Shown here: positions 5,862 through 8,129 of the stretch, piece after piece
How the letters are laid out: every line of letters begins with the position of its first letter
Numbering within the stretch: the first letter of the stretch is position 1
Made by a program: the position numbers and the translations under genes
Notes under the pieces: model-generated
What the model saw: only the letters and a program-made list of their open reading frames with translations
What the model was told of the DNA's origin: nothing
The model's database searches: none
Assembly (NCBI GenBank): GCA_963807965.1
Contig: CAWEDU010000017.1
Coordinates: forward strand, 207,452-271,451
DNA length: 64,000 bases
Direction: 5' to 3'
Origin: an uncultured Thermoplasmatales archaeon
Lineage (GTDB): Archaea; Thermoplasmatota; Penumbrarchaeia; Penumbrarchaeales; Penumbrarchaeaceae

Positions 5862-8129
5862 ATGCAATTGAATCGAAGAAGGATCGAAAGAATTAATATC
5901 CATTCAAACTGCATTCTTGAGAACAACCAGGCAACCGGGAGTGTGTATGATACAAAAACAGCCCAGATAAAAGAAGAATCAGAGGATAATAATTATTTCT
6001 TGAAGGAAAAGGAAATCACTACTCCGAACACACATCTCCCGATGACGGATTTCGATGGTATAGTGGATGAGGAATATCTATTCCATGGAGTAGGGGAATC
6101 GGATCCTTATCCGCTGGTCAGGACCCCCATGCCAACCTTCGATGCACCCGAAATAATCTCTATCACCCCAGGGTCCTCCTCGGTTGTTCTCGAATGGACC
6201 GAACCTCAGAAAAGGTATGGAGGGGACCTCGATGGATATAAGATATATCAGAAAGAGGGGAAAGGTCCGTTCCAATTGAGGTTCGACATATCAGATACGA
6301 ACATGATGACCATTCGATCCCTTTCAAATGGAGAAGTCTACTCTTATATGGTATCTGCTTACAATGATATGGGAGAAGGTCTACTCTCCGCTCCAGCATC
6401 GACGGTTCCAGATGGTACAGGGCCCGAAATATTCATTCACACTCCCGTTGAAGGGTCCTTCCTCAATGATGAGATCATTGAGCTCCAGTGGTCATGCATC
6501 GATGTTGAAACGGGAGTTTCTCTCATGGAGATATCCGTGGATGGAGGGGAACCCATCGAGATCCCGGTAGGTTATGGTTCCTATGATCTGGAGGGCCTTT
6601 CAGAGGGGGATCACATCGTAAATATCTGGTCAGAGAACTCCATCTCATTATCAACCCAGGTTTCTGTCAATTTTACAGTAGACCGGACCTCTCCATACCT
6701 TCTTTTTGATCATTCCGGTCCATTATATTCCAACCTTGGGTCCTTCCCCATATCTTGGAACGCTTACGATAACCTCTCGGGACTTGATGACGGATTCACC
6801 ATTTTCATGGAGGATAGGGATCCCATTCAAACCGATAGGAGCGACTACGAGATAATTATCCTGGATGAAGGGGAATATTTAGTTCTCATCTCCTTCAAGG
6901 ACCTTGCAGGGAACTATGGTTTGGCGAGTTTGAAGGTCATTCTGGATCAGACCCCTCCTGAGATCACCATCACTCCGGAAACGGAGTCAATTTTAGATAA
7001 AGACAGTATCATCCTGGATTGGGTCTCGGATGGGACCGGAAGTCCGATCAGAACAGTAGAAATATCCATTGATCGGGGAAGGTCCGTAGTCCAATTGGAA
7101 GGTCCTATGGAGTATAAGGACCTTAAAGATGGATCCCATGTGGTCACATTCTACCTTGAGGATAAAGCGGGGAACTCCGCTTCCAAGGATGTCACTATTT
7201 TCATCGATACAATTTCGCCCAGGATCGATTACAAGGTCCCATCCGGAGATAAGGTTCCCCTTGACAGTGATATGGAGATCGTTTTCTCCGAGAATGTTTT
7301 CAAGGTATCGGTAGTGATAAACGGCATCGCTTTCCAGACAATTATTAGCGGGAACAAAGCATACATCACTCCGGTTCCTGCCTGGGAGATCGGGAAAATA
7401 TATTCCATCGATGTTTCAGCAGTGGACCTCGCAGGGAATCCCCTGGAGAATGGATCCTATGAGTTCACAACCGTAGGTCCTGGATCAGTAAGCGGCAGGA
7501 TCATGGATGCTGGAGGCCGTCCTGTTGTTGATGCTGCTATTACCTTAGAGGGAACAGAATACCGGTCAGATGAGGAAGGCAGGTTCTCCTTCACCGGACC
7601 TGAGGGTAACTGGACAATACTGATCAATGCAAAGGGATTCGTGGAGTTCAATACAACCATTTCTCTGGTTCCCGGAAAGGATGCCGATCTGGGGAATGTA
7701 ATACTCTTGAAGAAGGAAGGAGATGGAAAGGATATCTCCGGTATCCTCATCTTTCTTATGATTCTTCTTATATTGATCATTATCTCAGGTTCAATCGTAT
7801 TCTTTGTTCTAAGAAGAAAGAAGAGGGGTCTAGAATACCAGGACATGTCAGCTATGAAAGAGATCATGTCCGGATTTGGAATAAGAAGGTCTCCCAAGGA
7901 GATCAACTGTTATCAGATCCTCGATGTTCCAAGGAATGCCAATGCTTTGGAGATCAAGAAAGCTTATAGAAACCTTGCAGGGATCTATCATCCGGATAAG
8001 AATGCCCATGGAAATACAGATGTGGAATTCGATGAGAAGATAAGGGAGATCAATACTGCAAAGACAATACTACTGGACCCGGAAAAGAGAGAGGTCCACG
8101 ACAGGATGCTGAACCATTTCGAAGACTGA
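5862..8129 (+). CDS. Single-pass membrane protein: FN3 domain, about four Ig-like (Big-type, DxAGN motif) domains, a carboxypeptidase-regulatory-like beta-sandwich, a TM helix, and a cytoplasmic C-terminal DnaJ J-domain.
   Basis: The 755-aa ORF contains an FN3-like block ([34 protein letters not shown]) and repeated TSP/TPP..DxAGN modules. [24 protein letters not shown]..GRFSF matches the CarboxypepD_reg/prealbumin fold. The hydrophobic stretch [26 protein letters not shown] is followed by RRKKRG. The C-terminal 70 aa, [34 protein letters not shown]...[23 protein letters not shown], match the J-domain consensus including HPD. There is no N-terminal signal peptide; a TGA stop lies 9 nt upstream of the ATG. 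Confidence 0.8.
   Translation: [755 protein letters not shown]

Follow-up and report, generated by a model that had tools for sequence, protein, structure and literature searches.

A J-domain tail on predicted giant surface proteins of Thermoplasmatota, recognised from a disrupted gene

The DNA analysed here, called the window throughout, is a 64-kb stretch of contig CAWEDU010000017.1 from an uncultured Thermoplasmatales archaeon (assembly GCA_963807965.1). Near its left end, an open reading frame (ORF) of 755 amino acids (aa) had been flagged in an initial annotation, made from the sequence alone, as a surface protein whose C-terminus is a cytoplasmic J-domain. Together with the disrupted sequence upstream of it, this ORF appears to form one gene rather than two (Table 1), and this gene is probably the orthologue of a type-I surface protein of approximately 1,500 residues found in Thermoplasmatota. 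The same degree of confidence covers the explanation as a whole, i.e. the anatomy of the gene, the damage carried by this copy and the mechanism proposed below for the family.

Anatomy of the flagged reading frame and of the gene around it

The flagged ORF was deposited as protein P0001 in a public protein collection. As initially described, it starts with ATG, is preceded by a stop nine nucleotides upstream (an in-frame TGA at 5853-5855) and lacks a signal peptide, no N-terminal hydrophobic segment being detected by a hydropathy scan of the 755 residues. The domains proposed at that stage (fn3, immunoglobulin (Ig)-like Big domains, CarboxypepD_reg and J-domain) were all recovered by Pfam on the 755-aa protein, and the matches of the ORF to its domains are not due to chance. 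An AlphaFold2 model was computed for the last 211 residues (mean predicted local distance difference test score of 80.7). The CarboxypepD_reg region was modelled as beta strands forming a sandwich, followed by a long helix (residues 627-653), a short helix and the four helices of a J-domain. The long helix overlaps the sole hydrophobic segment of the ORF, which supports its earlier designation as a transmembrane (TM) helix.

Table 1. Position of the reconstructed gene, its parts, its neighbours and related J-tail genes
Feature	Sequence	Position	Strand	Evidence or remarks
Reconstructed whole gene, disrupted	Window	3603..8129	+	Frameshift-aware alignment with P0026
Signal-peptide-like N-terminus	Window	3603..3680	+	MRTDAVILTVLLLAGPFWILFDQGEG; aligns with the P0026 N-terminus MRSIAVILAVLILVGPLISI
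Intact 5' segment (putative signal peptide, first beta-helix turns)	Window	3603..4355	+	No stops
Frameshift-ridden beta-helix segment	Window	4356..6044	+	About 13 frameshifts by alignment with P0026
TAATAA	Window	5766..5771	+	Sole in-frame stops left after frame correction
Flagged ORF	Window	5862..8129	+	755 aa, ATG start; longest open remnant of the broken gene
Out-of-frame stretch in flagged ORF (codons ~44-61)	Window	5993..6043	+	Between two compensating frameshifts
fn3 (fibronectin type III)	Window	6144..6404	+	Pfam, residues 95-181, 44 bits (cut-off 25)
Bacterial-type Ig-like run	Window	6414..7472	+	Pfam Big_13 42.8, Big_3_3 27.7, Big_5 24.2 bits
CarboxypepD_reg-like beta-sandwich, membrane-proximal	Window	7485..7700	+	PF13620, residues 542-613, 45.5 bits (cut-off 32.3)
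Single TM helix	Window	7734..7811	+	Residues 625-650, Kyte-Doolittle 3.26; sole such segment in ORF
Basic stop-transfer RRKKRG, cytoplasmic side (predicted)	Window	7812..7829	+	Directly after TM segment
Conserved juxtamembrane helix	Window	7836..7874	+	AlphaFold2 helix at residues 659-671
J-domain	Window	7905..8102	+	Pfam DnaJ (PF00226), residues 682-747
HPD motif	Window	7989..7997	+	Residues 710-712
Convergent surface protein (LamG/pentaxin, Big_5, C-terminal TM)	Window	8170..9438	-	Pfam
Small heat-shock protein Hsp20	Window	9587..10090	-	Pfam HSP20, 69.3 bits
J-tail gene, first of tandem pair (GCA_048569615.1)	L001	5262-9950
J-tail gene, second of tandem pair (GCA_048569615.1)	L001	10001-13210
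J-tail gene (GCA_048569615.1)	L086	10001-13879
J-tail gene (GCA_048569615.1)	L087	10001-13279		P0129

The tail of the ORF matched the DnaJ profile over positions 1-63 of 63, scoring 65.7 bits where the cut-off is 27.8 (E=4e-18). Its HPD motif lies in the loop that joins J-domain helices II and III of the AlphaFold2 model (695-708 and 721-738). The J-domain consensus initially noticed is consequently neither absent nor mutated. Among solved J-domains, the tail was recognised by comparison with Thermus DnaJ2 (4j7z, E=1e-13) and with the E. coli J-domain of the DnaK complex 5NRO (E=1e-9). The J-domain had also been placed immediately behind the TM helix and its basic RRKKRG stretch. This order was correct, but the two are not adjacent: approximately 30 residues intervene, and these include a conserved helix. 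Within the closest clade this juxtamembrane helix is conserved as strongly as the J-domain, its residues E-I-M-S-G-F-G being invariant in eight relatives and the subfamily motif ending in (R/T)RSP. A related pattern, [ML]-x-E-[IV]-x-x-x-F, was encountered between the TM helix and the J-domain in other subfamilies, and the helix might pack against the J-domain.

Neither the flagged ORF nor 30 aligned members of its family (see below) displayed a Pfam match to a glycine/phenylalanine (G/F) region, a DnaJ_CXXCXGXG zinc finger or a DnaJ_C domain. Full-length NCBIfam models of DnaJ, DjlA, TopJ and CbpA matched the J-domain only and remained far under their cut-offs. The profile match, the HPD motif and the absence of class A and B domains all assign the tail, on sequence grounds, to the J-domain proteins of class C (type III).

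The upstream part of the gene was recognised with the help of P0026, an intact orthologue of 1,503 aa (57% identity) from a metagenome-assembled genome (MAG) of an uncultured Thermoplasmatales archaeon. P0026 displays, in this order, a putative signal peptide, a NosD-type beta-helix, fn3, Ig-like domains, CarboxypepD_reg, a TM helix and a J-domain. In a frameshift-aware alignment it was collinear with window positions 3591-8130 across all of its 1,503 residues. The tblastn high-scoring segment pairs of P0026 were found in the identical order, with frame changes 0>2>1>0>2>1>0, which independently confirmed at least six of these changes. The alignment begins at the ATG at 3603 (MRTDAVILTVLLLAGPFWILF opposite MRSIAVILAVLILVGPLISI of P0026), and this ATG, rather than position 3555, is likely to be the true start. 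The intact 5' segment is 54% identical to residues 1-252 of P0026. Matches to beta-helix profiles came from the upstream ORF 3555-4358 only; they amounted to 43.7 bits for Beta_helix (PF13229, cut-off 25.9) and 30.9 bits for NosD (PF05048, cut-off 23.6).

The frameshifts were located near 4356, 4607, 4819, 5109, 5171, 5311, 5441, 5548, 5790, 5812 and 5879, and two further ones near 5991 and 6044 form a compensating pair. Three of the approximately 13 fall within the flagged ORF, whose first six or so codons lie outside the ancestral frame. Between the compensating pair, the shifted frame reads LFLEGKGNHYSEHTSPD, which fits the motif G.GN.YSEHT.PD of the family (P0002, P0026 and P0029). The initial annotation had considered that the flagged ORF might have lost an N-terminal secreted part, and had proposed for it the region 3555..5860, described as a beta-helix gene with a signal peptide. 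Both proposals were borne out: collinearity with the intact P0026 demonstrated the loss, and the region is a beta-helix coding sequence, with a putative signal peptide, that is broken into pieces. The signal peptide is missing from the 755-aa ORF because this ORF is a remnant of a disrupted longer gene. As reconstructed, the ectodomain is predicted to comprise a NosD/pectate-lyase-like right-handed beta-helix, fn3, four or five Ig-like domains and the CarboxypepD_reg beta-sandwich. In the native product it would presumably cross the membrane via the normal Sec pathway.

With its 755 open codons, its ATG and its entry in public collections (P0001), the flagged ORF might also be taken for a real stand-alone protein. 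It would then either be exported in an unconventional way, as was initially envisaged, or keep its Ig-like domains in the cytoplasm behind a TM anchor. This is hardly credible in view of the codons, at its start and around positions 44-61, that are out of the ancestral frame. Sixteen of the 19 full-length relatives (>1,000 aa) display a signal-like N-terminus, and most of these a beta-helix. Moreover, the reading frame of the syntenic orthologue P0002 (55% identity) extends upstream of the point equivalent to the start of the window ORF. P0002 is situated at a contig start and is open to the contig end; it is cut off there rather than genuinely short. We know of no precedent for the translocation of an N-terminal domain of 624 residues that lacks a signal peptide. 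The idea of unconventional export of a 755-aa protein was therefore abandoned, the ORF being a remnant of ORF calling. For annotation purposes, the deposited protein is best regarded as a truncated and partly out-of-frame reading of a gene of approximately 1,500 codons, and offers no basis for such export.

The J-tail family and its predicted topology

A profile composed of CarboxypepD_reg, TM helix, linker and J region was used in an exhaustive HMMER search of 1.84 billion representatives. Many of the best 150 matches were unrelated proteins with tandem CarboxypepD_reg domains. Among the same 150, at least 27 cluster representatives besides P0001 were matched at their C-terminus through the J-domain, about two-thirds of them over the whole profile and the others from the TM helix or the linker onward. 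The intact P0026 was also found by this search. At least 30 sequence clusters in total display the C-terminal TM helix and J-domain, all of them with HPD, and the J-tail architecture is that of a real and conserved family.

Other searches were less productive. Word-index searches with the C-terminal 165 aa or with the frame-corrected middle part returned the fragment P0023 or nothing, and missed P0026. Scans of metagenome contigs yielded no relatives. A C-terminal profile search of genome contigs, in which ordinary DnaJ genes dominated, uncovered at least three GTDB species representatives with a full tail match. All traceable sources of family members were Thermoplasmatota MAGs.

Members were up to 1,562 aa long, and each full-length member displayed one TM helix approximately 100-200 residues before its C-terminus. 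Pfam recognised DnaJ in all 30 aligned members, CarboxypepD_reg in 21, NosD/Beta_helix in 18 and fn3 in 16. The H, P and D residues were invariant in this alignment, as were the tyrosine of helix I and the arginine of helix II corresponding to K26 of DnaJ; the tyrosine equivalent to Y25 was nearly invariant. HPD was present in 32 out of 32 sequences checked. The J-domain was the best-conserved part of the protein, with an identity of 0.69 between window copy and P0026, compared with 0.45-0.61 elsewhere.

Ectodomains and linkers were more diverse. P0003, a protein of 1,069 aa from a Thermoplasmatota MAG found in the first homology search (32% identity), displayed a signal-like N-terminus followed by NosD/beta-helix, fn3, Ig-like domains, CarboxypepD_reg, a TM helix and DnaJ. 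The ectodomains of P0112, P0132 and P0140 consisted of a beta-helix and then a different repeat region, without CarboxypepD_reg. Three types of linker were distinguished: a short one containing a helix (e.g. MLEILRHFDV), an acidic one of 40-60 residues and a long acidic one of approximately 150 residues.

Several members may coexist in one genome. GCA_048569615.1 harbored at least four (Table 1), with differing ectodomains and linkers, and its tandem pair in L001 adjoins two paralogues whose C-terminus consists of a TM helix and a short tail without J-domain. A second species (L006) also displayed a tandem pair, at 301-4401 and 4398-7643, plus a paralogue without J-domain. The J-domain tail was confined to giant exported proteins, with several paralogues per genome and next to J-less paralogues. 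Automatic annotation designated these proteins as 'NosD domain-containing protein'.

The initial annotation placed the N-terminal domains outside the cell and the J-domain in the cytoplasm, and this topology received indirect support from three sides. The first is the hydrophobic, signal-like N-terminal segment of the 16 full-length members mentioned above, located around residues 3-41; in the remaining three, the N-terminus was weaker, undetected or truncated. Secondly, family-wide, the 15 residues preceding the TM helix were mostly net acidic or neutral while the 15 following it were mostly net basic. Finally, N-X-S/T sequons occurred at approximately 1.2-2.5 per 100 residues in nine ectodomains, exceeding composition-matched shuffles about 1.6-2 times in seven of the nine (z up to ~4.8), and numbered zero or one in cytoplasmic tails. 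Beta-helix, fn3, Big and CarboxypepD_reg domains are extracytoplasmic in character, and a J-domain must reach an ATP-dependent Hsp70. Members would accordingly be type-I membrane proteins, with the N-terminus outside and the C-terminal J-domain in the cytoplasm; it must be held against this call that it was drawn by rule from hydropathy, charge and sequon counts.

Damage to the window copy and its genomic surroundings

After frame correction, the broken segment was still 0.446 identical to P0026. For each segment, a conservation ratio was calculated by dividing the identity of the window to P0026 by that of two other intact orthologues to P0026. This ratio was 1.65 in the broken segment and 1.62 and 1.58 in the intact flanks, i.e. 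there was no excess of substitutions. The G+C content of the broken segment was 0.31-0.36 as opposed to 0.45 for the window. It was 0.30-0.38 over the matching part of the intact orthologue's gene in L003. Low G+C as a mark of pseudogene drift was ruled out by this equal dip, which is best seen as a property of beta-helix coding sequence.

Two general explanations were also rejected. An alternative genetic code or stop reassignment does not account for breaks that are frame changes, with all three stop codons occurring in the wrong frames. A generally error-prone assembly was unsupported: about 55 other ORFs of the window were unbroken, the other 62 kb were densely filled with such ORFs and the sole further gaps flanked the 16S ribosomal RNA gene. 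With conservation in the broken part matching that of the flanks, and with every other window gene unbroken, either a local insertion/deletion (indel) error in the assembly or a very recent inactivation would account for the damage.

An indel error that was left uncorrected in this A+T-rich stretch alone, e.g. for want of polishing, is given slightly better than an even chance. The frameshift sites do not fall within long homopolymers, which counts against such an error and is more in keeping with a true, recently formed pseudogene. In that case a paralogue would have been lost, and neither the 267-aa 5' ORF nor the 755-aa 3' ORF would be functional. This second possibility has somewhat less than an even chance. 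The 13 frameshifts and the TAATAA do stand in the deposited sequence, the remaining window bears no sign of a generally error-prone assembly, and a family with several paralogues in each genome can afford to lose one of them. However, prokaryotic substitutions typically outnumber indels by at least 10 to 1, so that more than 100 substitutions and several nonsense codons would be expected alongside 13 indels. A single TAATAA was found, amino-acid conservation was undiminished after frame correction, the low G+C is no sign of decay and all damage is restricted to 1.7 kb of a 4.5-kb gene. A burst of indels in 1.7 kb, with the coding information otherwise intact, fits an error somewhat better than decay. 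The upstream gene had initially been called decayed. Its disruption was confirmed, while the decay has to be qualified: the lesions are almost purely frameshifts, without loss of conservation and with a G+C content that recurs in the intact orthologue. Real decay is no likelier than an assembly indel error.

The two genes downstream of the J-tail gene encode a surface protein and Hsp20 (Table 1). In the closest clade (window, L002, L003 and L004), the gene order was conserved, with a large surface protein (-), the J-tail gene (+), the LamG/pentaxin-Big_5-TM protein (-) and Hsp20 (-). Neither Hsp20 nor the LamG/pentaxin gene was found beside distant family members, and Hsp20 was absent in L001 and L006. 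As functional support the Hsp20 neighbour is weak, since it is limited to the closest clade and is maybe plain inherited gene order. No signalling partner was conserved near J-tail genes in the loci compared.

The large surface protein at window positions 2-3485 (-) consists of beta-helix repeats, has a signal-like N-terminus and exceeds 1,161 residues, running off the window start. Its gene diverges from the J-tail gene, and the left end of the window forms a surface-protein island. Between Hsp20 and a gene of the metallo-beta-lactamase fold lies a 280-aa ORF with a PKD domain (10344-11186, +); it starts with TTG, and no signal segment is evident. L002 and L004 are empty at this place, and the ORF may be an insertion or another truncated reading.

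In GCA_048569615.1, genes with a Fic domain (L001 16558-17703 and L086 19932-21083) were located one to four genes downstream of J-tail genes. The animal Fic enzyme FICD AMPylates the Hsp70 BiP. These Fic neighbours are possibly coincidental, none being seen in L003, L004 or L006. Clostripain-family proteins (Peptidase_C11) occurred twice in the window, at 50691-52490 (-) and 61288-62871 (+), the former also displaying a signal-like N-terminus, Big_7 and a C-terminal TM helix. Another C11 peptidase (L087 7828-9855, -) lies directly upstream of the J-tail gene of P0129.

Two further features of the window were recorded. An archaeal 16S ribosomal RNA gene is complete (1334 bits) at 53170-54647 (+), and neither a 23S or 5S match nor a tRNA was found across the 64 kb; ribosomal RNA genes are commonly unlinked in Thermoplasmatota. 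A nucleotidyltransferase gene (57135-57704, +; Polbeta 26.5 bits, just under the cut-off of 26.9) overlaps a HEPN gene (57701-58141, +) in a toxin-antitoxin-like arrangement with a G+C content of 0.39.

Proposed function and comparison with known J-domain proteins

A DnaK/DnaJ/GrpE system is reported to be ancestral in Thermoplasmatales plus DHVE2 and to be present in Thermoplasmatota (PMC3564930, PMC12874294). J-domains dock on DnaK and trigger its ATP hydrolysis, upon which DnaK clamps a nearby polypeptide (PMC8215388). The J-tail proteins are most likely membrane-tethered class-C J-domain co-chaperones, for which we infer both the partnership with DnaK and the clients. Anchored by the TM helix, the J-domain would stay at the inner membrane face, where its HPD loop and basic helix II would stimulate DnaK to hydrolyse ATP; DnaK would then clamp onto any polypeptide close by. 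The likeliest clients would be the surface proteins themselves, or their export or quality-control intermediates at the membrane, because the tail is restricted to giant secreted proteins and recurs in several paralogues per genome, which stand beside J-less ones.

Several observations weigh against this co-chaperone function. No Hsp70 motifs were found in the 64-kb window or in approximately 130 kb of related Thermoplasmatota loci (L001-L007), and no dnaK, grpE or dnaJ gene was found in either. Position 27 of helix II (numbered according to E. coli DnaJ) is N in the window copy, not K or R. Helix III displays a family-specific signature, EINxAKxILLD as opposed to EIxEAYEVLSD in canonical DnaJ. 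Given these two features, the tail may be specific for a non-canonical Hsp70. In addition, the J-domain is made last and is of no help to the co-translational export of its own chain. Any role in self-biogenesis would therefore require post-translational action or action in trans.

Some of the same observations would be compatible with a J-like structural module devoid of Hsp70 function, e.g. a dimerisation or docking domain: the canonical tyrosine of helix III is substituted, and dnaK was missing from every locus scanned. Such a module is nevertheless very unlikely. The Pfam DnaJ score far exceeds its cut-off, HPD is retained in all of the sequences checked, and the K26 equivalent is invariant, the Y25 equivalent nearly so. 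J-like proteins lacking function typically lose HPD.

The initial annotation suggested an outside-in link from a surface adhesin to the Hsp70 system. In such a receptor, ligand binding or lattice formation by the ectodomain would alter oligomerisation or exposure of the J-domain and thereby switch local DnaK activity. The ectodomain is indeed of a carbohydrate-binding or adhesin-like kind, the conserved helix between TM helix and J-domain is a possible gate, and conservation within the protein is highest in the J-domain. A loose precedent is the coupling of E. coli DjlA to capsule regulation (in part from PMC8215388). A single TM helix and linkers ranging from 30 to approximately 150 residues, some of them highly acidic, nonetheless oppose one shared relay. 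The neighbourhoods lacked a conserved signalling partner, and a receptor of this kind is considered improbable.

As membrane-tethered co-chaperones, the J-tail proteins invite comparison with known systems, of which E. coli DjlA is one. DjlA also has a single membrane anchor and a cytoplasmic J-domain with HPD at its C-terminus (in part from PMC8215388). Both lack G/F, zinc-finger and DnaJ_C domains, and both are expected to recruit DnaK to the inner face of the membrane. However, DjlA is a protein of approximately 270 aa with an N-terminal anchor, a TerB-like cytoplasmic domain and essentially nothing outside, whereas the J-tail anchor lies approximately 100 residues from the C-terminus, after a secreted ectodomain of 1,350 residues. 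Membership in DjlA was rejected: PRK09430 reached 24.2 bits as opposed to 162, over residues 675-713 only, and TerB gave no match.

Escherichia coli DjlB and DjlC, yeast HLJ1 and human DNAJB12/B14 also possess a membrane-tethered J-domain facing the Hsp70 compartment (in part from PMC8215388 and PMC10410713); their presumed substrates are membrane proteins or the cytosolic domains of these. Their J-domain is N-terminal and their anchor is of the tail or type-II kind, with little on the far side of the membrane; none has a large adhesin-like extracellular domain and none is archaeal. In Sec63 (mentioned in PMC10410713) and Pam18/Tim14, a membrane-fixed J-domain likewise sets where Hsp70 grips the chain. 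There, it resides on the trans side of the translocase and pulls import, while the J-domain of the J-tail proteins would be on the cis (cytoplasmic) side and the protein would itself be the exported substrate. The sequence relationship ends at the J-domain.

Mycoplasma TopJ is a J-domain protein linked to a surface adhesion structure, and the NCBIfam TopJ model detected the J-domain of the tail. TopJ is cytoplasmic, however, with an N-terminal J-domain. Membership in TopJ was rejected, NF037946 and TIGR03835 reaching 52 bits as opposed to 300 and 42.7 as opposed to 512, respectively, over the J-domain only. An orthologue of the NosD copper-maturation protein was rejected as well (TIGR04247, 16.8 bits as opposed to 300).

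The closest resemblance outside the J-domain was to J-less surface proteins of Thermoplasmatota (P0004, P0010 and P0012, and the paralogues in L001 and L006). These are 25-29% identical, share gene clusters with J-tail genes and display a signal peptide, beta-helix, fn3 or Ig-like domains, Big_5, CarboxypepD_reg and a TM helix. Their cytoplasmic tail amounts to no more than RKK or a short acidic peptide, whereas J-tail proteins add approximately 100-200 residues after the TM helix.

No description of this architecture was found in full-text literature searches, whose coverage was incomplete, and a census of J-proteins (PMC10410713) contained no mention of 'transmembrane', NosD, fn3 or Beta_helix. 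The feature that appears to be new is a J-domain on the cytoplasmic end of a predicted type-I surface protein with an ectodomain of approximately 850-1,400 residues.

J-domain proteins decide where Hsp70 acts, and the known prokaryotic ones at membranes (DjlA, DjlB and DjlC) are small and hardly exposed. Here, the J-domain is found on sequon-rich surface proteins of 1,000-1,550 residues, which is unexpected for specialists. Beyond the co-chaperone function, it is conceivable, albeit speculative and rather unlikely, that J-tails constitute a lineage-specific device by which Thermoplasmatota couple cytoplasmic Hsp70 to giant surface proteins. In one form of it, an array of J-domains below the surface layer may drive the handling by DnaK of very long pre-secretory chains, in organisms devoid of SecA and SecB. 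In the other, clustering of ectodomains may gate DnaK via the juxtamembrane helix, which would be a true outside-in relay. If true, either form would be a use of Hsp70 at the cell surface for which no prokaryotic precedent was found. The J-tail proteins point to a link between the archaeal DnaK system, which is of bacterial origin, and the way in which the cell surface is built, maintained or sensed.

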